In this document: positions 15,001-43,467 of the stretch, one piece after another
Layout: each line of letters starts with the position of its first letter
Position numbering within the stretch: position 1 is the stretch's first letter
Assembly (NCBI GenBank): GCA_902475535.1
Contig: CABRZR010000001.1
Coordinates: 15,995-79,994, forward strand
Direction: 5' to 3'
DNA length: 64,000 bases
DNA from: an uncultured Coriobacteriia bacterium
GTDB taxonomy: Bacteria; Actinomycetota; Coriobacteriia; Coriobacteriales; QAMH01
Position numbers and translations under genes: made by a program
The notes under the pieces: model-generated
The model's database searches: none
The model's input: the letters and a program-made list of their open reading frames with translations, nothing else
Told to the model about the DNA's origin: nothing

Positions 15001-15060
15001 AAGACGCCGTTGGCATCCTGCAGCCAGTACTCGATGACGAACGGCGTGTCGGTCTTGGGG
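1..15060 (-). repeat. MucBP-like/Ig-like repeats (YxVx(H/R)(Y/W)...GDG...LKLYY) interleaved with Flg_new-type repeats. The array continues past the left edge.
   Basis: Examples are TPYTIERYQLNADGTITKLPNLTGTGTTGESVTTVPVAPEGYQV...GDGKLRLVHVF and TKYTVEYYKHRGDGTVVLDSTVEYVGMTDT...ADGTTVLKLYYE. Family assignment is by pattern only. Confidence 0.5.
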
Positions 15061-21000: not shown

Positions 21001-24000
21001 TCGATGAACATCTGGATGACCTGACCCGGCGCGTAGATGGCGGCGCCGTCCTTGGTCATGCCCCAACCGGTGAAGACGTAACCATCGCGCACGACCGCGT
21101 CGGCCTCGGGGAGCTTGGCATCGGCACCGGTGAGGTAGCGCGTGGCGCTCATGGAGGTGGCACCTGCCGCGGTGACGGTACCGCCGTTGGCGTCGAAGGA
21201 GAGCACCTGACCCGAGAGCCTGAAGATGGCCGTGAGGCTCATGGTGCAGGTCACGGTGGTGGGCAGCTCGTCCTTGCCGTCGACGGTGGTGTAGGTGACG
21301 CCATCGATGGTCCACTCCCAGCCGACGAACTTCCAACCGGGGCTCGTCTTGGGAAGGCCGAAGTTACGGGCGTTGGAGTTGATGTCATCGAGAAGGTCGG
21401 CATCGACTTCGGCGCCGTTGGCAAACAGCGGGAAGGGCGAATCCTTGGCCACGCCAATCCAGTAGGTCTTACCGGAGATATCAGGGAAGACGCCGTGATC
21501 GCCCTGGTAGTAGCGGATGTTGAAGACCTGGTCATCTTTCCACTGGGCCGTGAAGGTGGTGATGCCCAGGATGGTGACCTCGGTGGGGCTCTTGGCGATA
21601 CCGGTAATGGTGCCACCGCCGGGCAGCTGAATCACGTAGGTCCAGTGCGAGAACTCGTAGGGAGCGGTGGGCGTGACGGCGGGAACCTGCGCGCTGGTCA
21701 GATGCTGCCCGTAGTAGACCTGAACGGGAGCGCCGGAGGAGACGTTGCCATGAGAGGCATCCGAGGTGTTGAAGTTCACGTTGTAGAGGCGAGCCGACCA
21801 TACCGCGAACAGCGTGAAGGTGCGACCGTCATCGACGAGGTTGAAGACCGTCGCCTCATCGGCGTATTCGGCCGTCGCGGCATTGGGCGTGGTGGCCCAT
21901 CCCTTGAAGTCATAGCCGGGGCGCGCGAGGACGTTGGCGGGGAGCTTGCCCGAGACGCCGTAGGTGAGCTGCAGGTCATCCATCGACCCGGTGGCGTCAT
22001 CGGCGCCGGGGCGGAAGCTCACCAGATACTTGAGCGGCTCCCACTGCGCAAACAGGGTGACCGTCGCGTCCTGGATCGGATTAACGCCATCGACGAGCTT
22101 GTTGATGGCAACGTCCAGCAGGAGCTCGGCATCCAGGAACGTGTCGCCCGAGCCATCGGCCGCGGTGTTCCATCCCACGAACTTGTAACCGGGACGCGTC
22201 ATGGCGGGCGTGCCCGTCTGCGAGTTGCCGGCGACGGTGGGCAGGCGCAGCTGCGTGCCATAAGTCGCCGTTATGGAACCGGGCGCGTCCTTGCCCGTAT
22301 CCGCGTTGACGTCAAAGGCGATGTTGAAGGTGTTGGGCCTGAAGGTCGCGATGAAGGAGAGCGTAGCGGGCCAGCAGGTCACGCCATCGGCACGCGTCGG
22401 GGTGAAGCGGGCGTCGGTGGAAACGGCCTTGCCCGTCGAGGCATCGATCCACTCGACGAACTGGTACCCGCGCAGGGCTGCGGCTGCGGCAGTGGCGGCA
22501 CCGCTCACGCGCATGATCGAGAGCGTCCATCCAAGCTGCGTGCGCGTCCAGCTGGCAACCACCTTGCCCTGACTGTCGACGAGCTCGATGAGATCATCGG
22601 TCGCGACGTCGCCACGCCAGGACACGTCGGTCATGCCATCGGGAATGGTGTCGGTAACGGGCTCGACGCCACCGGCCACGGGCGCGGCGGTGAAGACGAT
22701 GGTCGTCTGGAGCTCGGCCCACTGGGCGTAGAGCGTGATGATGCTTCCGTTGCTGCCCTCGAAGTCGTTGACGCGCGCGCCGGGCCCATACTGGGTGCCG
22801 GTGCCATCGGCCTTGGTGTTCCAGCCGGTAAAGCGATAGCCGTCGCGGAAGATGCCATCGAGGGTGCCGCCAACGGCAAGCTGCAGGTAGACGCCATAGG
22901 TGGCGCGGTCATCGGCAAGGGCGCCAAAGCCGCCGTTTTCGTAGTACTTGACCGTGTAGGTGTTGGGGGCAAAGTGCGCGGTGAAGGTGGCCGGATGGAA
23001 GGTGCCGTTATCGTTGATGACGCCGAAGATAGTGTCGGCATCGAGAACATCGCGACGAGCCAGGGAGCTATCGATGGAATTGGTCCAGCGGTCAAAGTGA
23101 TAGCCAGGAGCAGGCGTGGCGATGGCGCCCTTGATGTCGAGGCGACCGGTCGCGTCGATGTCGAGGTCGACGATTTCGGATGCGGTCTTGCCATCATCGG
23201 AGGTGGTGGTCGAGGAAACGGTACCGTTGCCGTCGGCCTCGTAGATGATCTCGATCTTGCCGGGCTTCCACATCGCGTAGAGCGTGGGAACGACCGTGTT
23301 GTCATCGATGTCGCGGGCAATGGTGTGGAACGGCGTCTCGGACGTGGCCTCGGCACGGTCACCCGCATCGTTGAAGACGTAGTACCAGCCGAGGAACTCA
23401 TAGCCGTCGCGAACGGGGGTGATGGCCGGAAGCAGGTCCGTGTCGGTCCACAGGATATCGGTCCTGTCCTCGACGGCAGGCGTGCCACCACCGAGGTTGT
23501 AGTTCAGGACGAAGCCACCATGAGGCTCCCAGATGGCGTAGAGCGTCTGGAAGGCACGGTAGGTGATCTTGCCGTAATCGTCCACGACCTCCCTGATATC
23601 GACATCGATGCCCATGTCGGGGACGTCATCCCAGCGCAGGCGATAGATATCGCCGGCATTGTAGCGGGTGCCCGGCAAGTCGAGACTGGGCTGCGTGTAC
23701 CAGCCCGCGATGTCATAGCCGAGCATGTAGTAGTGGTCGGTGTCACTCAGACCCTCGTTGTAATCGGGGATCACGACATCGTCACCGGCGTCACCGTTGA
23801 TATCGGCAGCGCCGCCGTGAGCGTCATTGGCCACGAACTGAAGGGTGCTGTAACGGATGGGTGCCCACTGGGCGTAGAGGTCGGTGTACTCATGGCCGAA
23901 GACCGGGTGGGTCGCGGTGGGCATGATCTTCTCGCCCGCCTTGAACTCATGGCCGGGGTTGTTCTTGGTGGGAGATGCCAGCGTGTTCCACCAGATGAGG

Positions 24001-27000
24001 CGGTAGTTCTCGAGCTGGAAGCCATCCGTAGTGGACCCGTCACCGCTCTGGTCGGACGGATTGGGAATCGCCCACTCGAAGTCATAGGGCACGAAGGCGT
24101 CCGCCATGTTACCCGTGATGTTCAAGCCATTGGGCAGCGACTCCTTGTTGTTATGGAAGCGGACGATGGTGCCCGGATACCAGTGCCAACGGATGACACC
24201 CCAAGTGTTGGAGTTGCCTTCGAAGGACGTGCCGTTCTTGCCGTACAGCGTGACGATACCCGGATCGTTGTCATTGCCAAGGGTCACATAGTAGTCGCCG
24301 ATCTTGAAGTCACGGAAGGCGTGGTGGCCGTCAAGCTCCTCGATGCGCCAGCGGGCGGCCACGTTGTCGACATCGGTGGCGTTCATCCGCTGCTTGATGA
24401 TTGCCTCGATACCCGTGTTGGTGATGATGTTGCCCATGCCAAGGGTGAGTTCCACGAGGCTGTTCGCCTCGCCGAACATGTTGGTGCGATTTGCCGACTC
24501 GCTCATCTGCCAGGGAGATGCAGTCTGGACATTGGCAACCGACCCACCGGAGATGTTCACGGAGGTGACGGGCGACTTGTAGAAGAGCTTCTCGAAGCTC
24601 GTCGTGTTGGAGTCAACGAGCAGGTTGCTCAGGTCAACATCGACAAGGCCGGCGTAGTAACCATCGGAGTTTTCGAACCAGGATGCCAGCGACGTCGGAT
24701 GCAGGCGCGATCCGGTTTGCATGCTCGTGGCCACGTGAACGATGGAGCCAGCACCAAGCACTTCCTTCCAGGGCATGTAGGGGCCGGTCTCGGTCACGTC
24801 GATGCTCTTGGTGGTGGAGGTCTCGACGTTATCGACGCCAAGCAAGAGCGTGCCAGCCGGGTAGGTGGTGCCCTTGTACTCGGTCTCGTCGACGAAGTAG
24901 CGCCACCAGGCGGCGTCGTTGCTGGGGAAGCGGCCACCGACGTGCTCGGTCTGCCAGACATAGGTCTGCTTGCCGATGTTGTTATTCGGGTCATTGCCAA
25001 CGCCACCGAAACCGGCTGGATAGCGGTTTACGAGGTTGGAGGTGGTGCCCCACCAGTCGGGGTCGTCGGCGGTGACGTTGATCCAGGCACCAAGGACGCC
25101 CTGGTGCGCCTTGAGGCCGGAGTTGGTGAGGTAGTTATATTGGTTGAGGGTGAGCTTCTCGAGGGTCGTATTCTGCGCGAACATGTTGTTCGTACTCTGG
25201 CAATCCCTGAAGTCAAGACCGGTGGCGTCAAACTCCTTGAGGGATTGGAAATTGCCGGAGACGAGCTCAAGAGCCCAAGCGTAGGCGTTGGACTGGCCGT
25301 TGCTTACATAGCTTTCCCATTCGTTGGCGGTATACCAACCCCATTTGTCTTGAGCATCGTTTCTGTGCCACTGGGAAAGGCCGCGTGATTGATCGCCATA
25401 CCAAAGATCAAGAGCAAGTGCGGCATTGGCATACGGCATGATAACGACGCGGTTGAAGCCAGAGGTCGAGAAATTGCGGAGGTAGAAGAAGCGATTGATA
25501 TTCGCATCGGTTCCATAGGTTATGTAAGCGCCACTGCCCACGTTTCGCAACGTGTAGTACTTGGTACCATTGCTGGTGGTTCCTGCATGCCTGATATCCC
25601 AAAGAGTGTTGGTGTCGTTTCTGTCGGTGGTTAGGCTTCCGTCACCAATATATTTCAGCAGCGATGCGGTGCTATGGTTGAAATAGTGGATGTAGTAACG
25701 GCCGTCGATGAAATCATAGGAATAAGGATTTGCCGCAAACCAGCCGGTCATATCAGTGGGAGCAAGCTCGCCACAGGTAATGACCGTCTCGACCTTGGTC
25801 GTGTCGATGACATCCTTCCACGGCAGGTTGTTGGCCGTGCACGTAACCTCCTGCTTGCCATTGACGCTACCTAGGTAAAGCGTATTTGCCTCGGAATCGT
25901 AGGCCCACCAGGCATCGGCATTGCCAACGAAGTGACCGCCCTTGCCCGGCGTCCAGATGAACTCGACACGCGTGCCGTAGATGCTGCCATGACCAGCAGT
26001 ATCGAAACGCGTCGCAAGACCGGCACTCGTCTCGAACCAGGTGTGGTCAAAGAGCGTGTTGCCCTCGGAAGCGTCAGTGCGCCACATGCCGGAGTTCGGG
26101 TCACGACCGGTGATGCTGTCAAATCCCGTGCCCTGGAGCGCAGAGTTTGCACCCACGACGATCTTCTTGAGGGAGGTGCAACCCTTGAACATGTTTGCAT
26201 ATCCGGTGAGGATGGGGATGTCATTGCCCTCGTCGTCCGTTCCGGAGGAGCCAAAGGTCGTCTCGCGCATATCCCAACCGGCGATGTCAACTTCCTCGAG
26301 CTTGGAGTCGCCCTCGAAGAGACTCTCGAAGCTCAGGGTGTTCTTGGTGTCCATACCGGTGCCATCAAAGGTGACGAGGCTCGTATAGCCGGCAAACCAG
26401 CTCGCGAGGTTGACGGGGTTGATCTTGGTGCCAGTGGCATCGTCGATAACCGTGACGACGTGGAGCACCGAGCTACGGGCGACGGAAGGCAGCCACGGCA
26501 GCCAGGGTTCCTGGCCGGGTGTGATGGTGACGCGGTTGCTGACGGTGCCATCGTTGTTGAGGTCTGCAACGCCCATGATGAGCGTGCCGGGCTGGTAGGT
26601 CACGCCGTTGTAGACGGTTTCCTCGGCAAAGTAGCGCCACCAGAAATCGGGGTTCTGGTCTGCGCTGTTATGGAGTTCCCAGGTGTAGGTGATGATACCG
26701 GCTGGTTTGCTGCCATTCTTCATGTACTTGGCCAGCAGGTCGGCGTTGGTGCCGCGGAAGTTCGCATCGGCGGAGCTCAGCCACTGACCGGCGAAGTCCA
26801 CGTGGGACGCAATGCCCTCGAAGCCCGTGCCTTCGAGAATGGTGGTGGGGCCCAGGATGAGCTCGTTGAGGGCGATGTCGCCGCGCTCGTGGTCGGTAAC
26901 CGACGGGAGCGGATTGACATCGAGGAGGTCCTGGATGTTGAGACCCGGCTTGGTGAGGTCCCACTTGGAGAGATTGAGCGACTGGAGCTTGTAGTCGCCC

Positions 27001-30000
27001 TGGAACATCCCGGAGATGTCGGTGGCACCCGAGATGTCAAGTTGTTCGGCCTCGATGTTGGTCAGAGCAACGTAGTTCTGGAACCACTTCGAGGGGTTCA
27101 TGATCCTGATGACGGTGTCGTCACCATCGACGAACACCTTCTCGATCATGGAGGTGATGTCTTTGCCCTTGGGCATGTCTGGCGGTGCGAGGCTACCCCA
27201 CGGAAGCTGGTTGTAAAGCTCCTGGACCTCGTTGGACTCGTTCGGCTTCTCAAGGCCGAGCGTCAGGGTGTGCTCGGACATGTCGTAGCGCCACCAGACG
27301 TTGTTGTTGCTGTCGAAGCGGCCCTGGATGATGGCATAGAAGTAATAGTCGTCGTTGGCGTACATGTTGCCGCTGGCTGGATAATGCGCGGCAAGGATGG
27401 CGGAGCCATCGTACCAGGTCCTGTCCTCGTTGAACCAGGTGCCCTTCTCCTGGCCATGGTCGACCAAGTTGGCAAGTCCGGTGCCCTCGAGAACGGTGGT
27501 GGGGCCCGTCTTGATGTGGTAGAGCGAGCGGCAGCCGGCGAGCATGTCGGTCACGTTCTTGCCAACCATCTGCCACGTGGAAAGGTCGAGGTCCTTCAGG
27601 GATGTGCAGTTACGGAACATCTCGGCAAAGGTGGTGACGGAGCTCGTGTCCCACTTCCCTATCGGCATCTGGTCAACGATGCTCGATGCACCCTTGAACA
27701 TGGCCGAAAGGTCGGTGACCTTGGAGACGTCCCAGTCAGCCAGCGGCGTGAGATCGGTGATGGAGGCGCAGCCCTCGAACATGGAGGCCATGGTCGTTGC
27801 CTGGGAAACGTTCCAGGCGGCAAGACGGTCCAGGCTCTCCTGATTGAGGGCGGCATTGCCCGAGAACATGCCCGAGAAATCCGTGACCTTATCGGTATGC
27901 CAGCTGTCGGTACCGACGAGGTTGGCCAGCAATGCGTCGCCCTTGAACATGTCCTTGAGCGACGTGGCGTTGTTGACATCCATGTTGGTAGCGTCGAAGT
28001 CGGTGAGCTTGACGTAGTCAGCAAACCACGCCTCGGGGAAGGTGACGTTGAGGCCACCCAAGCTGGATGCCGTCACCGTGTTGACGGTGGTCAGCTCGGA
28101 TTTGACCGTGGGACGCGCCGCAAGCCAGGGAAGGTCGGCCGCGACGAAGTTCACCGAGTTGGAGCGGTCGGTACCCAAGGTGAGCGTCTCGAAGCTGCCG
28201 TTACCGTCCTCGTCGGTGAGCTTCCACCAGCTCACGTCGTTAGGCTCGAAGCGGCCGCCAAGAACATCGCCATTCCAGATGTACGTGAGCGTATCGTCAA
28301 AGACCTCGTCAGACGCCGAGCGCGGCCAGAGCGGATAGCGCATGCTCAGGCGCTCGGAGCAATCGAACCAGGTTCCATCGGCAAGCTCCCACATGCCCTG
28401 GGTGCGGGCGCGACTTGCAAGCGTATCGTCAAGACCGCTTCCGACGAGCGCGACATCGCCAGCCACGGTGAGCGAGGCAATGGAGCTGCAGCCGGAGAGC
28501 ATGTTCTTGAGCGCGTCGGTCGACTGGGCCGAAATCATGTGCCAACCGGAGATGTCGAGAGCGGCGAGGCTCGAGCAGTTCTCGAACATGGAAGCGAAGT
28601 TGGTTACCTGGACGACACTCCACTTCTGCATGCCACTGATATTCGCGAGGCTGGTGCAGCCCTTGAACATCTTGCTCAGGTCGGTAGCCGAGCCGACGTC
28701 CATGCCACTGGCCTCGATATCGTGCAGCGCGGTGTAGCCCTCGAACCAGGAGCTGGGATTCTGCACGACCAACGGGCGGTTGACGTCAAAGGTCCAGGTC
28801 TTGAGCGAGGTTATGGTGGTCTTTGCGCGGGCGGCGGAGACCGCGGGGTCGGAATTGTAGACCAGCAGCCAGGGAAGCTCTGCGGCAAGCGTCTCTACGT
28901 TGGGGTTCCTCAGGGACTCGTCGGACTCGTTGATGCCGATGGTCAGGGTCTCGAAGCTGCCGTTGCCGTCCTCGTCGGTGAGCCTCCACCACTTGGGGCC
29001 GTCGGGCGTGAAACGACCACCCCGGACGCTGGAGTTCCAACGGTAGGTGATCTTGTCGGTGAACGAGCTGCGGCGCGGGTAGCGTCCCGCCAGACGATCC
29101 GAGCAATCGTACCAGGAGCCATCGGGGATCTCCCAGACGCCGTCCCAGCGGGCGCGACCGGCAAGGGTATCGTCCAATCCGCTGCCCATGAGCACCGAAT
29201 TGCCCGAAGCGATGATGGTGTTGATGGCCGTGCATCCGGCAATCATGTCCTTCATGCCGAGATACTCGCCGTCGGAAACGGTGGCGAGCTGCATGTTCCA
29301 TCCGGAAACGTCAAGCGTGGTGAGAGCCGTGCAACCCTTGAACATCGAGGTGAAGTCGGTGACGTGGCCCGTGTTCCAGCTCGTGAGGGCGCTGTTGTCC
29401 TGGAGGGCGATGCAGTTTTGGAACATACCGGTCATGAACTTCGCGTTCGAGGTATTCCAGGTGCCGATGCGAGCCAGGTTGGAGAGGCTCTTGCAATCCT
29501 TGAACATGTAGGCGAAGTTCTCGACCTTGGCGGTGTTCCAAGCGGCGGTACCCTGTACCGTGGAGAGCCTAACGTCACCCTCGAAGAAGCCTTCGAAGCT
29601 CTTGGTGTTGGAAGGGTCGAGGCCCGTGCCGTCGAAAGAGGTAACGAGCCAGTAGGCAGGATTCTTGCAAACCATGAAATCATTGATGGTGAGCGTTGCG
29701 GTGTTGCCATCGCTTACCGTATCGATGTAGAGCACGAGATATACCGTACGGGCAGACGGGACGGTAAACTCAACGATCTTCTCCACAGGAGTGCTCGTCG
29801 CGCTGAGCCACGTGTAGGCATTTGGAGAGACGAGGTTTGCCGTGTGGATAGCATGCGCATGCGCAAGATCCAGATTGTTCGTAACTTCGAAGAAGGTGCC
29901 ATATGTGGGCATCGTGTAGTTGAAATAGGTGTAGTAGGTGCCTGCATCCAGACTCACCGGCACATACATGAAAGACCATCCGCTGATGCCATGGATAGTA

Positions 30001-33000
30001 ATGGCGTTGCCGTTCACGCTAAAGCTGCTTGCAGAGCCGCTCCAGCTTCCGAAACCGGGGACGGAAGCATTGCTATGGTCGATTTTGGAACTAGCAAACC
30101 AATAGGAAGCATCCTCGGGGAGCTGCAGCTGGCCGTGGGACGTGATGTTTGTGACAAAGCCCACGGTCTCAATATCGAGCCAGGGCAGTTCATCGTAATG
30201 CTCGGTCACGGCAACCGCGCCGATGCCATCGGTGCCCAGGTCGAGCGTGCGCGTGGCCTTGATGTACTTCCACCAGGCTTGCTCGTTGCTTGGGAAACGC
30301 CCACCCAGGAAGCTGCCATCCCAGGTGTAGATGCGGTCGGCGCCGCGCGTGTTGCCGCCAAACGGATACAGGGCGGTCAAGTGCGCGGAGCGATCGAACC
30401 ACAGACCATCGGCGCGTACCCAGGTGCCATCGTACTTGGTACGGCCTGCAAGCGTGTCGTCGAGACCGGCGCCTTCGAGCACGCTCGTATTGCTGAGCAT
30501 GAGCTGGTTGATGGCGGTGCAGCCAGAGAGCATGCCGGCAGCCGTGGTTGCCTTGGTCATGTCCCATCCGGCAAGGTTGAGCGAGACGAGCGCCGTGTCC
30601 CCGGCAAACACCCTGGAGAAGTCGGTGACGGAGCTCGTGTTCCAATATGCCACCGCATCATTGTTCTTCAGGTTCGTGCAACCTGCGAACATGTTTGCAA
30701 GCGTGGTCGCCGACGAGGTGTTCCACTCATCGACACCCGTAATCGTGGTGAGCGCCCGGTCATTCTGGAACATGCCCGAAAGGTCGGTCGCGCCCGTCAC
30801 GTTCATATCCGTACCATCGAAGCTCGTAAGGCCCGTATGGTTGGCAAACCAATTGGCGGGGTTTTGCAGAATGGTAGAGCCGTTGGTATTGACGGACAGC
30901 ACGTTTGCCAGGCCGGGGATGTCCTTCCAGGGAAGCTGATCGGCAGTCTCGGTAATGGTCTTGTTTGAACCACTGTCAGAGCCAATGGTCAAAAGCTTGC
31001 TTGCCTTGACGTAGGTCCACCAGGTGTTCTGGTTGGCAAAGCGACCACCAAGCGTCGTGCCGTCCCAGGTGTAGACAAGTGCATTTCCGAGGGTGTTTCC
31101 GCTCGCGCCATAGCGGGCCTTCATATCCGTGCAATCGCCAAACCATGTGTAGTTGGGCAGGTACCAGCGGCCATCGGAATCCGTACGGGTGCTGATGGCA
31201 TCGAGCCCGGCACCAGCCAGCACGGACTTGGGACCAAGCGTCATCTTGGAAAGCGCGGTGGCACCGGCAAGCATGTTGGCAAGGCTGGGGGCGCCGCTCA
31301 CGACATCCCATCCGGAGAAATCAACGGTTGTGAGATGGTTATCGTTTTGGAACATCGATGCCAGCGTCGTGGCAGAGGCAAAATCCCAGCCCTTGATTGC
31401 CGATGCGTCGACAAGACCCGTTCCCACGACCTGACCCTTGTCGTTAAGGGCCTGGGCGAACATGTACGAGAAATCCTGCACATTTGAGACGTTCCAACGT
31501 GCGATGCCAGCCAAGGAAGCAAGCGAATCGCAATCGTAGAACATCCGCGAAAGCGTTGTCGCGTTTGCGAGGTTCCAGTTGGTGATGCCGACGAGATCGG
31601 TCAGCGCCGTGCAGCCCGCAAACATCTTGGAGAAGTCAGTGGCCAGACCGGGGTTCATGGAACCGCCCTCGAAGCGCTGGATGAAGTTGTAGTTCTCGAA
31701 CCACGAGGCGGGATTGAGCGGTGCGGCGTCGTTACGGAACACGACGGCCTTCATGTTGTCATGGAACAGCTTGTATTGATAGAGGCGCCAGGGAAGCTCG
31801 GTTGCCAGCTCGGGAATCGTAAGGTCCGTGGCACCGGCATCGATACCGATGGTGAGCGTGCCCGTGGGCTTGTCGAAGGTCCACCAGGCGCTCGGGTTCT
31901 TGATGAAGTGGCCGCCGGGGCTATCCTCCTGCCAATCATAGGTGAGGGTACCGGCAAGCTGGCTTCCCAAGGTGTAGCGCTCGGCCAGGCGCTGGGTGCC
32001 GTCATACCACACGCCGCCGCGCAGCTGCCAACGTCCGTCGTAGGCATTGCGGTCGGTAAGGGTGTCATCGAAGCCCGTGTAGGTGGTCGTGCTGCCGTTG
32101 GTCACGGCAAGAACGTTGTGCTCGCCAAAGACAACCGTCACGAGGTTCTTGCAACCCGTGAACATGTTTGCAAGGTTGGTGGCAGCTTCCATGTTCCACG
32201 TGGAAATATTGAGCGTCTGCATATCCGCGCAATTCTGGAACATACCCGAGAAGTTCTGGACGGTGCTGACGTTCCAAGGCGTGAGCTCGACGTCCGTGAG
32301 CTTGGTGTTGGCGAACATGCCCGAGACGTTGATGGCGCTCGAAGTGTCCCAAACGCGAATGTCATTCAAGGACGTAAGGCCAACGGCACCATTGAACATG
32401 TTGGAGAAGTCAGTGACGTTGCTGACGTTCCAGTTGCGCAGGAACGAAAGCTCGGTTAGCGAAGAGGTGTTCCAGAAAGCACCGGACATGTCCGTGATAT
32501 TGGTGGTGTTGAGCCAGTACTCGATGCCGGAAAGCGTCGTGAGCTTGACGTCGCCACGGAAGAGGTCCTTGATGGAGTGCAGCGTATCGCCCCAGGCGTC
32601 GATACCGGCGACCGTCTCGAGCGACGTGCAACCCATGAACAGGCCCTCGATCGAATGGTCGGTCGCCATGGAAAGATCCAGGCCGGCACCGTCAAAGTCG
32701 ATGAGAGCGGTGTAGTCCTTGAACCACTTGGAGGGATTGATGAGCTTGATGCCACCAGTGATGACGATGCTCTGGATGTCCTCGCCGGTGAAGATCGAAG
32801 CCCACGGCAGCTCGTCCCACCTGTCCTCAATCTCGTAGTTATAGGAGCCGTCCTCCTCGGCCTCGATATCCGAGGTGCCGATGAGCAGGGTGTGCGAGGT
32901 CTTGTCGTAGCGCCACCAGGCGTTCTCGATGCCAGCGCCGTACTGGAAGCGGCCGCCAGGCATGGTATCCCACGTGTACAGGTAGATTTGCTGATACTTG

Positions 33001-36000
33001 GGGCCTTCGGGGGCAAACGGGTAGATGGCCGCAAGGTTGCTGGAACTATCATACCAGCGACCATCCTCACGTAGCCACTTACCATCAGCCACGCCATGAT
33101 CGGCAAGGCTGTTGGTGATGCCCGTGCCGGTGAGTGCGGACTTGAGGCCAAGGCGCAGCTTGGCGATGCTCTTGTTGTTGAGGAACATGCCCGTGATCGA
33201 AGGCGCGGTGAGCATGTCCCACCCGGAGACATCGACGGCGAGCAGTGCCGTGTCACCATTGAACATGTTTTCAAGCGTTGCACCTGCAACTACCCAAGTG
33301 GCAATACCCTCGGCATTCACCAGGTCGAGGCAGGAAGCGAACATCGAGGAGAAGTCCGTGACCTTGGAGACGTTCCAGCAATCGCGCTCCACTCCGTCAA
33401 TGGTGGCCGTATGCGGCTTGAGACGGTCGAGGGAAACAATCTTGGTATTGTAGAACATGCGGACCATGCTCGTAGCAGCAGAGGTATCCCAATCCATGAC
33501 CTGCGTGAGATTGGCGAGCGCCTGGTTATGAGCGAAGGCACCCGAGAAGTTTGTCACGGAGGAGGTGTTCCAACCCGAAATGCCGCTGAGAGGCAGTGCG
33601 GTGTTGCCCTCGAAAATCGATGCGATGGACGTGATGGCCGAAACGTCCCAATTTTCAAGACCGGTGAGCGTAGTAAGCTTGGCGCTTGCAGTCGTCTTGA
33701 AGAACATCTTCTCGAGACTCGTGGCCGTGGACGAGATCCTCAGCTCGCTCGCGTCGATATTGGCAAGCTCGAGGTAGTCGGCAAACCAGCTCGCGGGGTT
33801 TTGCAGGGTGAGGCCATCGCTCGTCGTGACCTGGGTGCATATGGCCCTGATGTCGAGGTTAGGCCAGGTGAGCCAAGGCTGTTGAGCGGCGGTTTCGGTA
33901 ACGATTTTGTCCTTGTAGTTGTCGCGCGGGCCATGCAGGTCGAGCACCTTGGTGTCGCGATGGTATTCCCACCACGCCTTGAGGTTGGAGTCGAAGCGAC
34001 CGCCCACCTCGTTGAGCTTCCACTGATAAGTGCCTGCCATCTCTGCAGGGCCGATACCCGGACGCTCTCGATTTGATTTGTTGATCTCATCCCAGCTGCC
34101 GATCCAGTAGGGATCAGGCGCGGAGTTCTTCCAGATGCCGGTCATGGTGAGCACGACGGTGGCGTTCCAACCGGAGCTCGTATAGCTACCATCCGTGTGG
34201 AAACGCACGTACATGTATTGCGCGGTGGTTGTATAGCTTGGAGCCCCTCCGGTGCTGCCAGACCAACGGTTGAGATAATAATTGCCGTTGGAATCCCATA
34301 CGGAGACCCAGTCATAACCACGCTCGGTATAAATACCGTTATTAAAGGTCACGGAAATGGAGCTCGTCTTGCCGTTGCCATAGGTCCAGGTATGGTCGTA
34401 GCCATTATAGTAGCCGGGGTTGCCAAACTTCTGGTCGCCTTCGCGTTGCTGGCCGTTCGAAGCGAGCTGGTAGGTCAGGGTGCGGGTGGGTTGGTCGATG
34501 CCCTTACCATCGTTGCAATAGGCATCGTAGCCAGGGCCAAAGGTGACCTCGTCCAGATACTCGTCACGATAGAACATCTGGACGACGGTATCCGTGGCGT
34601 CGATGGTCCAGTTGCCCATGTCAACCTTGAGCAGCTTGCGCATGCCGCGGAACATGTAGTTGAAGTTGGTGGCAGAGCTCGTGTCCCAACTGCCCGTACC
34701 GGTGACGTACTGCAGTTGATTGACTCCGTCGAACATGCATTCAAAAGTGGTGACCTTGGAGACATCCCAGTTTGCCATGGAGGGCAGGGTGACAAGCTTG
34801 CTGCAGCCCTGGAACATGCTTGACACGTTCGTGAGAACGGGAGTGTTCCAAGTGGCGGTTCCAGCAATGGTGGTGAGCGCGGTGTTGTTTCGGAATGTCG
34901 AGGCGAAGCTCGTAACATCTTTGGTGTCGAGTCCGGCGCCGTCAAAGTTGGTGAGGCCTGTATGGCCATCAAACCAGCCGCCGAGAGACTTGGGGGCAAG
35001 ACCGCCCGTGGTGTGAACCGTCAAGATGGAGGTGGTGTAGTTGGCAACGACCCTCCTCCAGGGCAAGTTTGCTGCAGTCGAGTCCGTCTCGTCGATGGAC
35101 TTATCTGCATCCGCGCCGCCGTCTGCTCCCATGTGCAGTGCCTTCGTGGCCTTGACGTAATACCACCAGGCATTTTGGTTGCTCATGAAACGGCCGCCCA
35201 GGCGCGTGTCATCCCAAATATACGTGATCGTGCCCGCTGGTGGTGCGCGGCCTTGGTCATTTCCGGAATAGCGATCCGCGAGTCGCGAGGTGCAATCGAA
35301 CCAGATCTCGTCGCCCTCGTCATTGGTGTAGAGCCACATGCCAGTCGTGGCCTCGAGGCCCGGCAGGCTGTTGGAAAGGCCGGAATCACCCAGGCGCACA
35401 CCCTGGCCCAGGATGAGCTTGCGCAGGCCCTTGCAGTTTTGCAGCAGGTTGGCATGGGTGCCGTTTTCCATCACCCAGCTGTGGATGTCGAGCTCGGTGA
35501 TCTTGGCAAGGCCGGCAAAGGCATTGTCGAAGCTGGTCACGTTGATGGTGTTCCACTCCCCCATGCCAGTGACGCTCGTCATGTTGATTGCGCCGTTATA
35601 GAGGTTGCGCAGCGAGATGAGCTTCTCGGTCGTGGCAGAGTCGGTGGGCCAGGTGACCGAGACAAGGGCGGTGCAGCCGTCGAAGGTGCTTTCCATGGAC
35701 GTGACCAGCGAAAGGTCCAGACCACGGCCATCGAATTTGGTGAGCTGCGTGTAGCCTTTGAACCAGCTCTCCAGTGTGTGCGGCGAGATGGTGCCGAGCT
35801 CCGGCGAGGAGACAAAGGAGGTCACGCGCGTATCAGGATCGTTGTTCGGGTCTTCGATGAGCGAGCGCCAGGGCATGGTCACGGAACCATCGGCAGCCTC
35901 GAACTCGGTGACCTCGACGGAAAGCGTGGGGTCATCAACGCCAACGGAAAGCTGGCCCTTGTTGTACTCCCACCAGACGTTCGTGTTCTCGAAACGGCCG

Positions 36001-39000
36001 CGCATGTAGCCTTCGAGGAACTTGTAGGTGACGGTGTAGTAGTTGTTGTGGGTCTCGGGATAACGTGCTGCGAGGTCTCCCGTGTTACCGATGAGTGAAT
36101 CGGCGAGGTTCTCGTACTCGTGCTCCTCGTCAACGAGCTCGGCCCAGGTGCCGTTCTTGGGAAGGTGATCGGCGAGGGTGTTGTCGAAGCCCGAGTCCTT
36201 GGCCGGGCCATTGAGCACGACGCCGTTGGAAACCTTGAGGTAGATGAGGTCTCGAAGGTTCTTGAACATGTCGGTAAAGATCGCATCGGACGGCATGTAC
36301 CAGTGCGAATCGTCAACCGCGAGGTGCAGGCGGGAGAGCCTGACGTCGTTTGCGAACATGCCCTCGAAGGTGCGAGCCGCATTGACCGTCCACCCGGCAA
36401 TTGCCGTAAGGGTGGTGAGGGAGCGGAGCTCGGAGAAGGAATAGGCGAAGTCCGTGACCCTGCTCACGCCCCAGTCGGTGATGTTGTTGATGGTCGTGAG
36501 GTTAACGTCGTTGTAGAAGAGCTTGTGCAAGCTCGTGCAATAGGCGGGGTTGAGGCCCGTGCCATCAAAGGTCTTGAGGTTTGAGAGCTCCGCAAACCAT
36601 CCGGTCATGTTGAGCGGAGCAATGCTGTTTTGGGTGGCGACGGAGGTGATCTTGGTCTTGCCGTTGATGGGCGCGAGCCATGGCAAGGTCAAACTGCTCG
36701 TCGGGGCAAGGGTGCCATCTGCCAGCGTGTACTGCATCGTGCCATCATATTCGGAGACGGTCTTATCGGGAGCGTTTTGCTCGACGCCAATGGTAAGCAC
36801 GCCGTTGACGAAGGTCCACCAGGCGTAGAGGTTGCTCGGGAAGCGCCCACGTACCCCAGAGGCCCACGTATAGGTGTGGGTGGTAGAGATGATCTGTGTC
36901 AGAGTCTTGGTCACACCCGACTCGGCGCCAAAGTTGAAGGTTGCGCTCTTATCAGCGCCATAGCGGGCGATGAGCTGCTGGGTGCAATCAAACCAGGGGG
37001 TATCGGCGCTGTTGGAATCCATGGTCCAGTGGCCGGCAGTGGTCACGCGAGAAGAAAGCGGAGTGACACCGTCAGCTCCGTTGCCAAAGCCCGTCCCCTC
37101 GAGCACGGCAACCCTGTCGAGGGTAATCGAGCTGATGGAGGGCAGATTGGCGAGCATGAGGTCGTGAGGCGTGGAGGCGGTCCAGTTCCAGCCGGTGAGG
37201 TTGAGCGTGGCAAGGGCCGTGTCCCCGGCAAAGGTGCTGGAAAGCGTGCCGGTGGGTGACAGCAGAACTTGCGAGATGTCCATGCCGGAAGCATTGATGT
37301 TGGTGACATCGGTATAACCGGCAAACCAGAACGCAAGATTCATGGGCGCGAGCCTGCCGTTAATGATGATGGAGGTGACGTAGCGGCCGGTCCACGTGTT
37401 ATTGCTGCCGGTGGTATGAGCGCGAATGATACCCGCCTTGTGCCAGGGCAGCACGCGCGAAGTGGCCGAAGTCTCGAACTCCGTCACGATCTTGTTGCTG
37501 CCGCTATCGGTGCCAAGCGTGAGGGTGTGGCTGTTTGCATCGTAACTCCACCAGGCATTGTCGTTGCTGGGGAAGCGGCCGCGCAGGGCGCTCGACCAGG
37601 TATAGGTGATGTCATCGGTTATCGCGTTGCCGACGCCATCCTTGGCAGCGGGATAGCGGCGGGCGACGTCACCCGTGGAACCGAACCAGGGGGAGCCGGC
37701 GGAAGTGTAGGCCCAAGAGCCGTTGGTCGGCAGGTGGGCAGCGAGCGTATCGTCAAAGCCAGTGCCTTCGAAGATGATCTGCGGGCCAACCGTAATCGAC
37801 GTAAGCGCGTTGAGGCCAACGAGCATTTCGGTGCGCGTGGCCGTGTCCTTCATGTTCCAACCGGAGATATCAAGCGAGGTAAGGGCGCTGTTGTTCTTGA
37901 ACGCCGTGTCGTACTTGGTGATGTTGGTGGTATCCCACTCATCGATGCCCGTAATGGTCCTGAGTTTGGCATCGCCTTCGAAGAGTCCTTCGATGCTTAT
38001 AGTATTAGTGGTGATGAAGCCAACGCCGTTGAAATCCACGAGATTGGGGTAGTTGGCAAACCAGAAATTAAGGTTGGCCGGCGCGACCCTCTTATCGGTG
38101 CTGGTCACGACGCGCGTAACCACGTCTTTGGAACCAATGGCCGCAAGCCAGGGCAACACCTTGGAAGCAGCACCGGTCTCGGTCTCGGTGACGACGAGAT
38201 TGCCGGCCTGGTTGTCCGATCCGATGGTGAGCACGCCATCCGCAAAGGTCCACCACGTGTTGTCGTTGTCGAAACGACCTGCCATGACACCCGCTTTCCA
38301 GATGTAGGCCATCTTTCCAGCGGCAGCGCCCTCGGCGTTCTTTCCGGCGGGATAGCGCTTTGCGAAGTTCGAGGTCGAGCCGAACCAGGTCGAGCTGCTG
38401 GCACCGTTAGGAGTTCCTTCCCAAGATCCCTGGGTAACCTTAAGACCCTGCAGGTCGCTGTTGAAACTCGTCCCCTCGAGGATGACTCCTGCACCCACCG
38501 TAAAGACACCTTGTCCAAAAGCGGCAACGGTGCCGAGCTTGCCGCAAGAAGCGAACATGTCGGTTCTGGTGGAAGACGCATCCATGGACCAGCCGGAGAT
38601 ATCGAGCGTCACCAGGTTGGCGCACCCGGCAAACATGTTGGCGAAATCGGTGACTCCCGTGACGTTCCAGGAGGCGCCGTCGACGAACATGAGCAGGGAG
38701 CTTGCGTTCCTGAACATCCCATTAGTATTAGTGAGCGCCGCGGTGTTCCATCCGGAAACACCGGAAAGCTGCGTAAGGCTGGCAGCGCCTTCGAACATGG
38801 AGACGAAGTTCTCGATATGGGAGACGTCCCAATTCTCGAGACCCGTCACCGTGCTGAGACGCTCGGTGCTGTAGAAGAGCTGGTACAGCGAAGTGTTGCC
38901 GGCAAGATCAAGACCGGCACCATCGAAGCTCGTCAGGCGATGGTAGTTCTTGAACCAGGCCGCGAAGTCGACGGGGTTGAAGTTCTTGCCGGGGTTACCA

Positions 39001-42000
39001 TCAGCCTCGACGGTGACCATGTTGATGAGAACGGCGTAGTTCTCGCCAATGGCCTTGAGCCAGGGAACGCTTGCCGCGTTCTCGGTCACGCTGCGATTGA
39101 TGACCGCCGAGTTGGGATTGGGGCCCGTCCCCCTGTACTCGTCGGTACCCAAGGTGAGTGCTCCGGCGGTGCGGTCGAACTTCCACCAGGCGTTGTCGTT
39201 ACTGTCGAAGCGACCGCGCAGGTTGTTGCTCGACCAGGTGTAGGTCATTGCGCCGGGAACGATGGAGTTACCAGCGTAGCGGTTCTTGAGGTTTTCGGTC
39301 GTGCCAAACCAAATGCCATCGGAGCAATCCCAGCTACCGGCAGAGGCGATGCGGGTCTTCATGAGCTCGGCATCGTCAAGACCGGTACCCTCGAGAATCA
39401 CGGTCTGGCAGATCTTGAAGGTCGCGATAGCTTCGAGGTAGGCAAACATATTAGTGCGAACCGCGCTCTGCGGCATGTTCCATCCGGAGATGTCGAGAGT
39501 AACGACGAAGTTGTCGCCCTCAAACATGCCCTCGAAGGTCTGGGCAGCCGTGACGTTCCAACGAGCCAGGGCGTCGATGGTGACGAGGTCCTTCGTGTTG
39601 CGGAACATGTGCGCGAAGTTCGTAACGTGGGAGGTGTCCCAGTCACCGATGGTGGGCTGCACAGTCATGAGGTTGCAGCCATCGAAGAGGCCCTCGAGCG
39701 AGGTGATCGTGCTGGTGTTCCATGCGGCAACGCCCGAGAGCGAGTTGAGTGCGTTGCAGTCCTTGAAGAGGTTGGCGAGCGAATGGGTTTCGGAAAGGTC
39801 GACGCCGGCACCGTTGAAGCTAACCAGCGATGCGTATCCGGCAAACCATCCATCGGTTACGGTGCCGTTGCCACCAAGGTTCTGCGGCTTGACCCGAGTG
39901 GGGTTGCTCGCATCTCCCGTGGCGCGGAAGACAACGTAGTTGACCTGATCCTTGCGGATGACCCCATTCCAGGGAAGGTTGGATGCATCCTGCGTCACTA
40001 TAGTATTAGTGGCCCCCGGATCCGCACCAATCGTGATGGTACCGTTAGTATAAATCCAGTAGACGCTGTCGTTTCCATCGAAGCGACCGGAGCGCATGGA
40101 CGGATCCCAGATATATGTGAAGGAACCTGTAGCATCTCCCTCAATCGAAGAGGAGACGGGATAGCGCGCGGCGAGGTTTTCACTGGAACCAAACCAAGCG
40201 CTGTCTTCGGTGGCCCAAGAACCATTTGCCGTTCCATGCTCGATGAGAGTTTCTATACCGGAACCTGTAAGAATCACGTCGCCACTCAAGAGGAGACGGC
40301 GGAGCGACGAGTTGCCGGAGAACATGTTGTCGCGGGGAGCGGTCGGCTGCATGACCCAACCCGTGAGGTTCATGCTCGTGACTCCAGCATCCATGAAGAG
40401 GAACGCGAAGCTCGTCGCAAACTCAACATTCATTCCCGTGCCATCGAAGTTGGTCATCGAAACGTAGCTCTTGAACCAGTTCTCGAAATTCACGGGAGCG
40501 ATTCCATTGCGCGTAACAACGGAACGAACGGCAAACGATCCGGTGGGGACCGCTCCCGTGGTAAGCCAGGGAACATTTGTCGCCGACTCGGTCACCTTCT
40601 TGTCGGCGGCTCCGATTGCGTTGCCGCGCGAGTCAACGGAGTCGGCACCAATGGTAAGAATGCCATCGGAAGTTCCGCTGAACATCCACCAAGCATTGTC
40701 ATTCTCGAAGCGGCCACCGATCTGATTCGGATGCCACGTATATATTAGTGCGCCCGAAGCACTCGAGGGGCGTTGGGCAGCTGTCTTGGTGGCGGAATAA
40801 CGAGTGGCAAGATTGCCCGTCGTGCCAAACCACACGCCATCCGAGCAGTCCCAGGTTCCAGCCCTTGGTTCGCGCTTCGAGAACGAATCGGTAAGTCCGG
40901 TACCTGTGAGAATTACGGTCTCCGTTACGGTGAGGGTAGTAAGCGTCGTGCAGTTCGTGAACATGTTGTCACGAGGAGCACTTGCGACCGCATCCATGTT
41001 CCAACCGGAGATGTCGATTGCGGAGAGGAAGGTGTCGCCGCGGAAAAGCGAATCGAACGAAGTGCAGTGGGAGACGTCGATTCCCGTACCGTCGAAGCTG
41101 ATGAGATTTGCGTAGTTTGCAAACCAGGATGCGAGAGTGGTCGGCGCGATGTTTCCGAAAGTCGTGATTGCCTTGATGGCGGCAGCCCCAACCGAAGGAA
41201 GTCAGGGAAGCTGCTCGGCCGTTTCGTCGACGGACTTATCAACGGCACCTGTTGCATCGATGGTCAGCGTGCTCGAGGTCTTGTCGAAGGACCAGAGCAC
41301 ATTCGCGTTGGATGCGAAGCCGGACTCATAGTAGAAATTGTAAGCATGAATTCCGGAAGGCGCGCCGGATCCAGAGTAGCGACTCACGAGATTGGCAGTC
41401 GTTCCGGACCATGCATCCGACTTCCACGTGCCGGCGTTGTCGCCACGGCTTGCCGTGTTACCCAAACCGGTACCATTAAGATTCACATTCGGATTGAGGG
41501 TTATCTTCTCAATCGCTCCCATGTTCGAAAGCATGTTGGTTTTGGTAGCCGATCCGACAGTCCAGTTCGTAAAATCGAGTTCCTTCAGATTTGAGCAACC
41601 TACAAACATATTCATGAAGGTTGTTGCCTTGGAAGTGTTCCACGATCCAATACCCTGAACAGTTTCAAGATTTGTGCAACCATTAAACATGTTTGCGAAG
41701 GTGGTCACATTTGACGTGTTCAATGAATCCGCTTGGAATGAGACGAGTGATGTGTATCCGCTAAACCAATTGGATAGGTTTGTGGGCGCAATGGGGCCCG
41801 TGATTATGACCTGGAATATGTCGGTCGTTGTAAACGAGCTCTTCCAGGGAAGCGAAGACCCGTACTCAGTGACAGCCATATCGCCGTTATCGAGCACGGG
41901 ATGGATGTTGAGCGTCATGGTTCGCGTATCGACGCTCCACGAAATATTCGAGTTGCTGGCAAAGAATCCGCTGTTGTCAGCCTGAGGGCTAATAGACGAA

Positions 42001-42554
42001 CTCGCCGCCAGAAGCGGTGAGTCCAAAGCGTCCTGCATGATCTGATCAACGCCGTCTAGGCCCGATGATGATTCGTCCGGCTTGAACAAATCGCGTACTG
42101 GGCCGTAGACCTCCCCTGACGTTTCCGTCGGCACCGCATTTTCTGCTGGTGCCGTTTGTTCAGGGGCAGATTCCGAGCGAGCACTCTCAGCGGGAAGGGC
42201 GACTGCCTCGGGGGCTGCCTTGGGGGCAGCTGCAGGAGTAGTCACCGCCGCGGATCCGGCCGAAGCCGGCATGGGGATTGCGGCTGCCGCGGATCGCGGA
42301 GCAGCCACGGGCTCTGCAGCGCTGGAAGAAGCCGCCACGGGCTGCGGTGCCGCAGCCGGAGCCATGACGACGACGGAGCCATTGGAGCCGGCACCCGCCG
42401 AAGCGATGTTCTCGGAGTTGTAGGAATTCTCGTCAGCGAGAGCAGGGGTGGCGAACGACGTAAGTACTAATATCGCGCCCGCGAAAAAAACAAGGCAAAG
42501 CGTGACGAGGGCGCGAAGAGCCCTTCGCTGCATGTCGCTGCGAGGCAGGTCCAT
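1..42554 (-). CDS. Giant secreted cell-surface adhesin-like protein. Contains DUF285/BspA-type LRR supermodules, Flg_new repeats and MucBP-like repeats. The 3' end lies beyond the window. One in-frame TGA at 41202..41204.
   Basis: The only minus ORF in the track whose low coordinate is 0 mod 3 is 41202..42839. So the minus frame in that phase has no stop from 41201 down to base 3 (13,733 codons). It is absent from the track only because it leaves the window without a stop. All large + ORFs from 27 to 41594 start at 0 mod 3 and are made of GNN/CNN codons, which marks them as antisense shadows. Hand translation is coherent along the whole length. The start is ATG at 42554 (MDLPRSDMQRR...) or 42533 (MQRRALRAL...). 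Confidence 0.85.
1403..8869. repeat. Eleven exact intragenic copies of the 12-mer GGGTCTGTCCCC. Ten are direct, with + strand starts at 1403, 2129, 2831, 3455, 4306, 4954, 5215, 7112, 7141 and 8858. One is inverted (GGGGACAGACCC at 5469..5480).
   Basis: Read directly from the sequence. The + strand shadow ORFs show the copies as GLSP or VCP. Confidence 0.9.
15060..24000 (-). repeat. Array of Listeria-Bacteroides repeat (Flg_new-type) domains
   Basis: Repeats of ~75-90 aa end in (T/V)LYAxW and have a GYxFxGW core. One example is YTVKYYENGGFGALADDRATYGVYLQLAVGGTLDGIFRDGYRFTGWNTKADGTGTQYGPGARVNDFEGSNGSIITLYAQW. Confidence 0.7.
25320..25716 (-). other. Ricin-type beta-trefoil lectin-like insert
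   Basis: Hand translation reads DFIDGRYYIHYFNHSTASLLKYIGDGSLTTDRNDTNTLWDIRHAGTTSNGTKYYTLRNVGSGAYITYG...ALALDLWYGDQSRGLSQWHRNDAQDKWGW. It contains QxW-like motifs and is a locally AT-richer segment. Confidence 0.4.
29661..30137 (-). other. Lower-GC insert resembling a carbohydrate-binding or jelly-roll module
   Basis: Hand translation reads ...SYWFASSKIDHSNASVPGFGSWSGSASSFSVNGNAITIHGISGWSFMYVPVSLDAGTYYTYFNYTMPTYGTFFEVTNNLD...VYLVLYIDTVSDGNTATLTINDFMVCKN. It interrupts the supermodule periodicity. The fold call is by pattern only. Confidence 0.3.
34131..34480 (-). other. CUB-like beta-sandwich insert inside one supermodule
   Basis: Hand translation reads FGNPGYYNGYDHTWTYGNGKTSSISVTFNNGIYTERGYDWVSVWDSNGNYYLNRWSGSTG...AQYMYVRFHTDGSYTSSGWNATVV. 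This resembles the CUB pattern (SPxYP..Y...W.I....I.L.F..F..E...DYV.V.DG.....F.SD....GF.A). No HMM was run. Confidence 0.4.
41202..41204 (-). other. In-frame TGA replacing a Trp codon that is conserved in the paralogous modules
   Basis: The minus strand reads gag cag ctt ccc TGA ctt cct tcg gtt. Paralogous modules have (L/V)PW at this point. Confidence 0.9.
41202..42554 (-). CDS. N-terminal ORF of the giant gene as literally terminated by TGA. It covers the signal peptide, the Ala/Pro/Ser-rich linker and the first LRR module.
   Basis: ORF track entry 41202..42839. The AT-rich upstream part of that entry is unlikely to be coding. A signal peptide-like segment MQRRALRALVTLCLVFFAGAILVLTSFATPALA is followed by DENSYNSEN and AAAPQPVAASSSAAEPVAAP low complexity. 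Then come DUF285-type repeats (NVTTFANMFNGCTNLETVQGIGSWNTSKATTFMNMFVGCSNLKELDFTNW). Confidence 0.7.
   Translation of the reverse strand: MDLPRSDMQRRALRALVTLCLVFFAGAILVLTSFATPALADENSYNSENIASAGAGSNGSVVVMAPAAAPQPVAASSSAAEPVAAPRSAAAAIPMPASAGSAAVTTPAAAPKAAPEAVALPAESARSESAPEQTAPAENAVPTETSGEVYGPVRDLFKPDESSSGLDGVDQIMQDALDSPLLAASSSISPQADNSGFFASNSNISWSVDTRTMTLNIHPVLDNGDMAVTEYGSSLPWKSSFTTTDIFQVIITGPIAPTNLSNWFSGYTSLVSFQADSLNTSNVTTFANMFNGCTNLETVQGIGSWNTSKATTFMNMFVGCSNLKELDFTNWTVGSATKTNMLSNMGAIEKITLNPNVNLNGTGLGNTASRGDNAGTWKSDAWSGTTANLVSRYSGSGAPSGIHAYNFYYESGFASNANVLWSFDKTSSTLTIDATGAVDKSVDETAEQLP
42435..42533 (-). other. Predicted Sec signal peptide of the giant protein
   Basis: It has a basic n-region (RRALR), a hydrophobic core (LVTLCLVFFAGAILVLTSF) and an A-L-A motif before DENSY. 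No predictor was run. Confidence 0.65.
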
Positions 42555-43433
42555 GTATGTCCGCTTTGTGCTCAATACAACTCCTGAACGGGGGTTATGA
42601 AAAACACATCGAGGTGGAACGGAAGGGAAACAAGGGGTAGAACGGCTAGGGACGTTTGAGAAGGATGATTTGGATTGAAAAAACGCGGTAGACGTGGTGT
42701 TTTGGGATTCGAATTGTACTTCCCTCAAGTAAAAAACGCCTGCGTAACCAGCCGTTTTGCCCAGTATCGTTTGCGAACGGTAGGTTATTTCGGGCGGATG
42801 ACAGTGATTTTCCCCATCGTGTCCATTTTTTCTCGACACGTCTCCACAATTTCTTGAGAAGTGAGTCTGCTAGGTGTCAAAGTCCATTATTTCCCGAAAT
42901 GATATTTGAGCGTTCGTTCGATGTATCGTTTCGAGGCGAATTTTCGACTCGGAGTCATTTTCATGAAATTATTCCGTATTACATATAAAGATTTATCATA
43001 AAACGTGATTAAGATTCCGACGACCGATCCCTGTGGAAAACTTCGCATCTCGACGCGGAATTTTTATCTAGGATTTGGATAAATCTTTATCGCGATTTAA
43101 GATAACTCAACAGGCACGTTCTGCGTGCGATTTTCTCCAGATTCTTTATCTGTTCTCGGTATAATTTTATAGGCTTCAATTTCTCGGACTGATATACAGA
43201 AAATGTCTCTGATTTCATACATTTTTGAGGCGTTTCTTGAGCAGCCTTTCGGCTTTCCCCTCCCCCGTGCTCTTTCTGCACTCGTACCCCCTTAATCGCT
43301 CCGCGCGATAATTCCGCGCCACCCTCCGCGCCCAGGCGCGGAACCCTCGATCGAGGTTTCTCGACTCCGGCGCTTCGCGCCTCCGCTCGAAACGAAAAGA
43401 GGGCGCACCCCCTTCGATCGAAATGACCCTCGA

Positions 43434-43467
43434 GGGTCTGTCCCCTTATTACTAGGGGTCTGTCCCC
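43434..43467. promoter_or_regulatory. Tandem pair of GGGTCTGTCCCCTTATT (43434 and 43456, 22-bp spacing) in the upstream region of the giant gene
   Basis: The sequence is gagGGTCTGTCCCCTTATTactagGGGTCTGTCCCCTTATTgcc. It is non-coding and lies 880 bp upstream of ATG 42554. Its function is unknown. Confidence 0.6.

Follow-up and report, generated by a model that had tools for sequence, protein, structure and literature searches.

A premature stop in a gene for a giant extracellular protein has been described in Apilactobacillus kunkeei, where giant5 of one strain carries a confirmed termination codon (PMC12863079). In Staphylococcus aureus, poly-A tracts cause reversible loss of function, and tracts of more than six units slip above the basal rate, with expansions being favoured (bioRxiv 10.1101/2025.07.08.663602). 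Here we describe a 45-kb gene from an uncultured Coriobacteriia bacterium that shares features with both cases. The gene runs on the minus strand of a 64,000-nucleotide stretch (contig CABRZR010000001.1, positions 15,995 to 79,994; hereafter “the window”), encodes a putative surface protein of almost 15,000 amino acids (aa) and is interrupted by a single in-frame TGA at 41202..41204. With a probability of roughly 88%, we consider this TGA a real and recent G>A nonsense mutation at Trp451, and one of many independent alleles in which a single lesion turns the gene off (“OFF” alleles, as opposed to full-length “ON” alleles).

The locus resembles A. kunkeei giant5 in that one strain carries one premature stop in a conserved gene for a giant extracellular protein, the remaining frame of which is intact. 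Unlike giant5, it comes with many independent alleles, comprising six Trp-to-stop changes confirmed in the DNA and four frameshifts in a homopolymer tract; at ~15,000 aa it also has twice the length, and it belongs to an uncultured gut Coriobacteriia species. The tract frameshifts are reminiscent of phase variation by simple sequence repeats (SSRs) in S. aureus: a surface protein gene carries a homopolymer within its 5' coding region, length variants of ±1 unit shift the frame, and at this tract (T7) the expansions (three) likewise outnumber the contractions (one). The TGA itself departs from this scheme, as a base substitution is not readily reversible, and the T7 tract counts only seven units. 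In Escherichia coli, UGA-C is the weakest tetranucleotide stop signal, a C-terminal proline slows termination, and near-cognate tRNA-Trp can read UGA; the codon described here is likewise preceded by Pro and followed by C, and insertion of Trp would restore the native protein. Unlike stops that are subject to programmed readthrough, it is not conserved, lacks a stimulatory element and is private to one strain. Finally, the gene product is related to BspA-like/DUF285 (PARCEL) and InlB B-repeat-like proteins through matches to DUF285, Flg_new, PARCEL and List_Bact_rpt above the cut-offs and through an N-terminal signal peptide recognized by inspection, but it differs from them by its extreme scale, with about 20 leucine-rich repeat (LRR) supermodules and, behind them, ~9,000 aa of repeat units.

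Read on the minus strand, the stop lies in the context ...gag cag ctt ccc TGA ctt cct tcg..., where the TGA (41204..41202) takes the place of Trp codon 451 (TGG>TGA) and stands between a proline codon (CCC) and a C. Among the 14,279 codons of this frame in the window, a scan detects this stop and no other, and the 13,733 codons downstream are open from 41201 to window position 1 and continue past the window edge. The first-pass annotation was thus accurate regarding the position and context of the stop and the length of the open frame behind it. The stretch 1..41201 (minus) represents the rest of the giant gene, as delineated by the frame scan and by profile matches. Upstream of the stop, an open reading frame (ORF) of 450 aa (41205..42554, minus) starts with an ATG at 42554 and carries a signal peptide and an Ala/Pro/Ser-rich linker as well as the first DUF285/PARCEL LRR module. 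The signal-peptide coding region (42435..42554, minus) was read by eye from the translation; residues 1-40 (MDLPRSDMQRRALRALVTLCLVFFAGAILVLTSFATPALA, followed by DENS) resemble a Sec signal peptide with a putative Arg-rich n-region, a hydrophobic core and a cleavage-like site between ALA and DE. The secreted N-terminal fragment proposed earlier has a signal-peptide-like N-terminus, and its length has to be corrected from ~445 to 450 aa. Gene callers start a separate downstream ORF of 14,474 aa (MDAVASAPRDNMF...) at an ATG at 40995..40997 (minus; placed in the window from position 11558 of L001), 205 nt after the stop, and the translation from 40997 lacks a signal peptide. The TGA falls exactly on the W of an (L/V)PW motif that opens 18 paralogous DUF285 modules. 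The earlier deduction of a TGG-to-TGA change from these paralogues was correct, and the W or TGG found at the site in orthologues provides the stronger argument.

The bacterium is an uncultured human-gut Coriobacteriia species, the GTDB representative of which is the metagenome-assembled genome HGM04055 (locus L007, 96% DNA identity); the sister species (L006) is 81-84% identical in DNA. The comparison with related strains that had been proposed as a check finds TGG or W in every other conspecific allele examined, in the species representative and in the sister species. A 90%-identity protein cluster around the N-terminal fragment has 52 members, and W occupies the stop position in each of the 12 listed members covering the site (AEQLPWLPSVGAAAIK). 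The species representative carries CCC TGG CTT, and the sister species reads DQLPWLPS in a frame that stays open for more than 4,400 codons. Locus L005, which stems from another sample and is 98% identical overall, differs from the window within the first 1,793 nt of the coding sequence only at the TGA/TGG base, and within ~3.5 kb upstream at two positions only; the two share a near-identical haplotype block of ~5 kb. In the more than 14,000 codons downstream of the TGA there is no second lesion, although about 2.5-3% of random single-base changes in this gene would create a stop, and the age of the TGA is therefore bounded to a very small divergence.

The allele is also reproducible. The exact 450-aa product is recorded on seven contigs, four of which (L001-L004) were retrieved; these four share 99.9-100% identity with the window and come from three BioSamples and from run ERR1297838 of PRJEB12357, a faecal microbiota transplantation (FMT) time series that comprises five patients and three donors. 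The TGA-bearing assemblies were made by two pipelines, with contigs of up to 97.8 kb at 100% identity to the window, and a contig of 0.2-1 Mb as well as an entry from NCBI are also among the records of the allele. Taken together, the comparisons argue that TGG is ancestral and that TGA is derived, recent and private to one strain lineage in one FMT study. Among the four options that the first-pass annotation had listed, a recent inactivating mutation is thus the best supported, with the TGA as the sole change on a shared haplotype and a frame free of further lesions behind it.

Over a longer range (28667-52554), the window and L005 form a mosaic, in which nearly identical blocks (0-1 differences per 500 nt) and more divergent ones (15-30 per 500 nt) are interleaved. 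This pattern suggests frequent homologous recombination in and around the giant gene.

Tracing shortened cluster members back to the DNA revealed five other Trp codons turned into stops, each in a different locus and all in strains and samples other than that of the window: W568 TGG>TGA (nt 10763-10765 of L052), W1296 TGG>TAG (nt 13886-13888 of L005), W1668 TGG>TAG (nt 14268-14270 of L014), W2464 TGG>TGA (nt 17390-17392 of L015) and W3797 TGG>TAG (nt 11537-11539 of L016). None of these five loci contains a further stop in the visible 3,900-7,100 codons. The cluster members P0007 and P0018 end just before a Trp. Other candidates were dismissed: an apparent frameshift in L032 reflects a run of N from scaffolding, and the frameshifted tails of P0011, P0013, P0015, P0016, P0019 and P0020, for which the window sequence offers no homopolymer context, are indistinguishable from assembly errors.

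ON and OFF alleles were tallied via the neighbouring radical-SAM protein, a sampling scheme that avoids ascertainment by truncation. Full-length ON alleles are found in L034, L035, L036, L041, L046/L047 and L050/L051, and OFF alleles in the window strain and in L037, L038, L039, L040 and L043; in L039 the protein ends after 6,126 aa, with the lesion not visible in the sequence. About half of the alleles sampled in this way are OFF (~6 ON, ~6 OFF). The earlier suggestion of an ON/OFF polymorphism holds to this extent: across the species, roughly every second sampled allele is off, by means of other lesions that include length variants (T6/T7/T8) of the homopolymer.

This homopolymer is a T7 tract (A7 on the plus strand; 42484..42490, minus), which spans codons V22-F23-F24 (GTT TTT TTC) and is in frame, and hence ON, in the window. 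It is the only homopolymer of at least seven units in the 45-kb gene and lies within the signal-peptide codons. The tract has six units in L037, eight in L038, L040 and L043 and seven in ~20 other loci, and each T6 or T8 variant shifts the frame by ±1 in an otherwise open gene (14,831 aa in L043, and 12,757 aa up to the contig end in L037). T7 is retained in the sister species and in the 74%-identical L044, and it is formed by rare codons (GTT accounts for 16% of Val and TTT for 19% of Phe codons). In contrast to the tract, control A6/T6 runs nearby are invariant in 18-20 loci. A metagenome scan for the T-tract pattern returned one T7 contig only and was uninformative. An SSR in the 5' coding region, together with frame-toggling length variants among closely related genomes in assembly-level data, is characteristic of phase-variable genes, and the T7 tract appears to be a candidate for ON/OFF phase variation by slipped-strand mispairing. 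Just upstream of the conserved tract, L044 carries a 20-bp tandem duplication (TTGTCACGCTGTGCCTAGTA/T; nt ~9770-9810 of L044), which shifts the frame of the signal-peptide region and represents another disruption of the 5' end, in this case in a 74%-identical orthologue.

The sheer size of the gene provides a large target for nonsense mutations. It contains 407 TGG codons, and single changes lead to a stop along 1,129 transition and 2,667 transversion paths. Trp codons account for 814 of the 1,129 transition paths (72%), and G:C>A:T transitions at the 407 TGG codons, as the largest nonsense target, explain why Trp codons dominate among the observed lesions. Eight of the nine nonsense events observed are at Trp, which is unlikely under uniform rates but unremarkable under a transition-only spectrum (P = 0.24); therefore, no Trp-specific mechanism is needed, and such a mechanism was rejected. 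Four of the six mutated TGG codons confirmed in the DNA follow CC (CCTGG), compared to 20% expected (P = 0.017, post hoc). A hotspot of 5-methylcytosine deamination at Dcm-type CCWGG sites could account for this excess, yet it is a weak lead that we do not rely upon, because two of the four CCTGG hits are at the outer C and the window shows no depletion of CCWGG (230 observed versus 207 expected).

Selection on the gene was assessed by the nonsynonymous-to-synonymous ratio of substitution rates (dN/dS), which amounts to 0.04-0.06 between the window and conspecific alleles, including pairs with a stop in both partners, and to 0.16 between the window and the sister species. With these values and a single stop in the frame, the gene is not a decaying pseudogene and is under strong purifying selection across strains. 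Such strong long-term constraint on a gene of which about half of the sampled alleles carry a single young lesion points to OFF lineages that arise recurrently and are short-lived.

Several other explanations of the TGA have to be weighed against a recent nonsense mutation. An assembly, consensus or sequencing error with TGG as the true base has nothing specific in its favour beyond a single-base difference in metagenome-derived sequence; this option of the first-pass annotation is practically ruled out by the recurrence of the same base in four PRJEB12357 assemblies from different samples or runs, made by two pipelines. A non-standard code, in which UGA specifies Trp (as in codes 4 or 25) or selenocysteine, would fit a stop at a Trp position, yet TGA ends 5 of 15 well-supported neighbouring genes, from which it follows that the code is standard. 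Moreover, relatives use TGG at the site, TAG replaces different Trp codons in other strains, and no Rfam match resembling a selenocysteine insertion sequence (SECIS) was found; non-standard decoding is accordingly a vanishingly improbable explanation. A leaky stop, which also figured among the earlier options, would act as a regulatory device under selection and yield mostly the secreted 450-aa fragment plus a trickle of full-length protein. The CCC-TGA-C context, the restoration of the wild-type residue by tRNA-Trp and the 14,474 intact codons downstream agree with this idea, but an intact frame is equally expected of any young mutation, and the TGA is missing from every other allele and species examined. 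Furthermore, the other OFF alleles use TAG, TGA-G, TGA-T or frameshifts, and thus, nothing sets the Pro-UGA-C context apart. A stretch of 120 nt that begins with the stop codon shows no stimulatory RNA fold (z = -0.79 versus shuffles), an Rfam scan gave no match near the gathering score (two sub-threshold sRNA matches lie elsewhere in the region), and the tRNA genes of the window (one tRNA-Glu and two tRNA-Ser) do not include a suppressor. An evolved readthrough device is therefore quite improbable. Since near-cognate tRNA-Trp would restore the native Trp, traces of full-length synthesis are plausible, and incidental, low-level readthrough of this kind may occur in the Pro-UGA-C context.

The main alternative to recurrent, short-lived OFF lineages is plain neutral decay in a large target, where a dispensable gene frequently acquires nonsense mutations, without selection for the OFF state and without phase variation. 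The number of nonsense paths in a 45-kb gene with 407 Trp codons is compatible with such a process, and so are the lack of the gene at the syntenic site of a related abundant species and the T7 tract, which is short for a classical contingency tract. However, the low dN/dS, the single lesion in each OFF allele and the absence of lesions in the sister species indicate long-term constraint, and strain divergence of ~2-4% should have given many stops per allele in a dispensable gene. Likewise, ~50% OFF alleles lie far above mutation-selection balance for a constrained gene, and the T7 tract is made up of rare codons and conserved across three species. On balance, we regard neutral decay as unlikely, though it deserves to be taken seriously.

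Some points speak against our preferred interpretation, a recent nonsense mutation within a series of recurrent OFF alleles. The neighbour-anchored sample is small (6 ON, 6 OFF). All sightings of the TGA come from one study, possibly from one donor or recipient strain, and the assembly-level evidence is compatible with a fixed TGA as well as with a TGA/TGG mixture in the host. Three of the four T-tract variants stem from Logan short-read contigs, and the near-identical ON allele with which L040 is paired (L034) may come from a long-read assembly, in which homopolymer lengths are prone to error. Moreover, the “off” state may really be “very low” expression, and selection of OFF alleles and drift in a huge mutational target are both compatible with the data.

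According to the proposed sequence of events, a G>A transition would have turned the TGG of Trp451 into TGA in one strain lineage, and translation would stop after a 450-aa fragment that bears a signal peptide and contains one LRR module. The giant protein would essentially be off, because the ~14,500 codons that remain lack both a start and an export signal of their own. In addition, premature Rho-type polarity may affect the 45-kb mRNA, and Trp-restoring readthrough would occur in traces at most. Over longer times, the OFF lineages would be purged. Why OFF alleles recur is a more delicate question; the likeliest reading, in our view a genuine possibility that falls somewhat short of being probable, is that conditions within hosts repeatedly favour, or at least tolerate, a loss of expression, while an intact copy is required over longer times. 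More tentatively, the gene might be a contingency locus, which is switched off within hosts reversibly via the T7 tract and irreversibly via G>A changes at the 407 Trp codons, while strong long-term selection, e.g., for transmission or colonization, retains the intact gene. In such a locus the Pro-UGA-C allele would be “dimmed” rather than null, owing to readthrough by tRNA-Trp that restores the native residue. As a whole this scenario seems possible but doubtful.

Taken by itself, the TGA makes an ordinary nonsense allele, private to one strain, and its appropriate annotation is that of a disrupted gene rather than of a recoding site. More worth following are the candidate T7 switch and the recurrent inactivation, by single hits, of a gene for a 15,000-aa gut adhesin. 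This gene is under very strong purifying selection and yet, in about half of the sampled hosts, switched off by a single lesion that differs between them. The combination amounts to a natural experiment on the costs and benefits of a giant adhesin, and the FMT time series that carries the TGA allele is suited to test these directly. Possible drivers of the OFF state include the burden of expression, pressure by immunoglobulin A or phages, and a trade-off between transmission and persistence.

The gene product is, judged by its profile matches, a putative surface protein of ~14,990 aa that combines DUF285/PARCEL (BspA-like) LRR modules with Listeria-Bacteroides repeats. Its N-terminal ~5,700 residues form the ~20 supermodules, which match Pfam DUF285 and the NCBIfam PARCEL repeat above the cut-offs (PF03382, 42.5 and 139.5 bits versus a cut-off of 25; TIGR02167, 35 and 54.9 bits versus 30); in the N-terminal ORF, DUF285 matches residues 258-341 (6.4e-11). 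The remainder matches the Listeria-Bacteroides repeat (Flg_new/List_Bact_rpt), interleaved with immunoglobulin-like units. Intact orthologues of 14,982-14,992 aa occur in six sample sets, and the window allele would measure ~14,993 aa if the TGA were read through; the C-terminus, and with it any anchor, is located beyond the window and beyond every locus examined. Protein homology searches with a junction-spanning query and with a 608-aa query free of low complexity returned only distant DUF285 proteins among the matches listed; they did not recover the giant proteins and were of no use for counting alleles.

The locus is also present on a 2.14-Mb contig, and therefore, the giant gene makes up ~2% of a ~2.1-Mb genome; it ranks among the largest genes of a human-gut bacterium. 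Its neighbours are ordinary chromosomal genes, including two WYL regulators, a radical-SAM enzyme, a DinG-like helicase-exonuclease and PNP. A related, far more abundant species (L017-L031; 78-79% DNA identity) lacks the giant gene in the syntenic region, where the two WYL genes are directly followed by a 211-aa gene, moeA and trigger factor; hence, the 45-kb gene is lineage-specific at this site. These loci were found via the commonest radical-SAM neighbour alleles (P0023, P0024) and were not counted as alleles of the giant gene.

Between the WYL regulator gene and the start of the giant gene lies an unusually long non-coding stretch of ~1.6 kb (42555-44157), in which the gene callers place small ORFs of 100-253 aa inconsistently across assemblies; an Rfam scan of this stretch yielded no significant match. 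Opposite the giant gene, long antisense ORFs of up to 5,245 aa run on the plus strand in the codon-aligned frame (5253-20990, 21495-25388, 25932-30968 and 37269-40748). They were rejected as genes, because their length is explained by the near absence of the sense codons TTA (2), CTA (8) and TCA (18) among 14,184 codons. Finally, a non-LRR insert interrupts the succession of modules at ~29,700-30,100 (minus; residues ~4,150-4,300 from the ATG). It reads SKIDHSNASVPGFGSWSGS... in the window and is swapped in another strain (P0016) for a strongly divergent sequence (TKIDSKNVDLPAFNNWSYNS...). In the comparison with L016, dN/dS reaches up to 0.14, and the insert may represent a variable ligand-binding or antigenic cassette.

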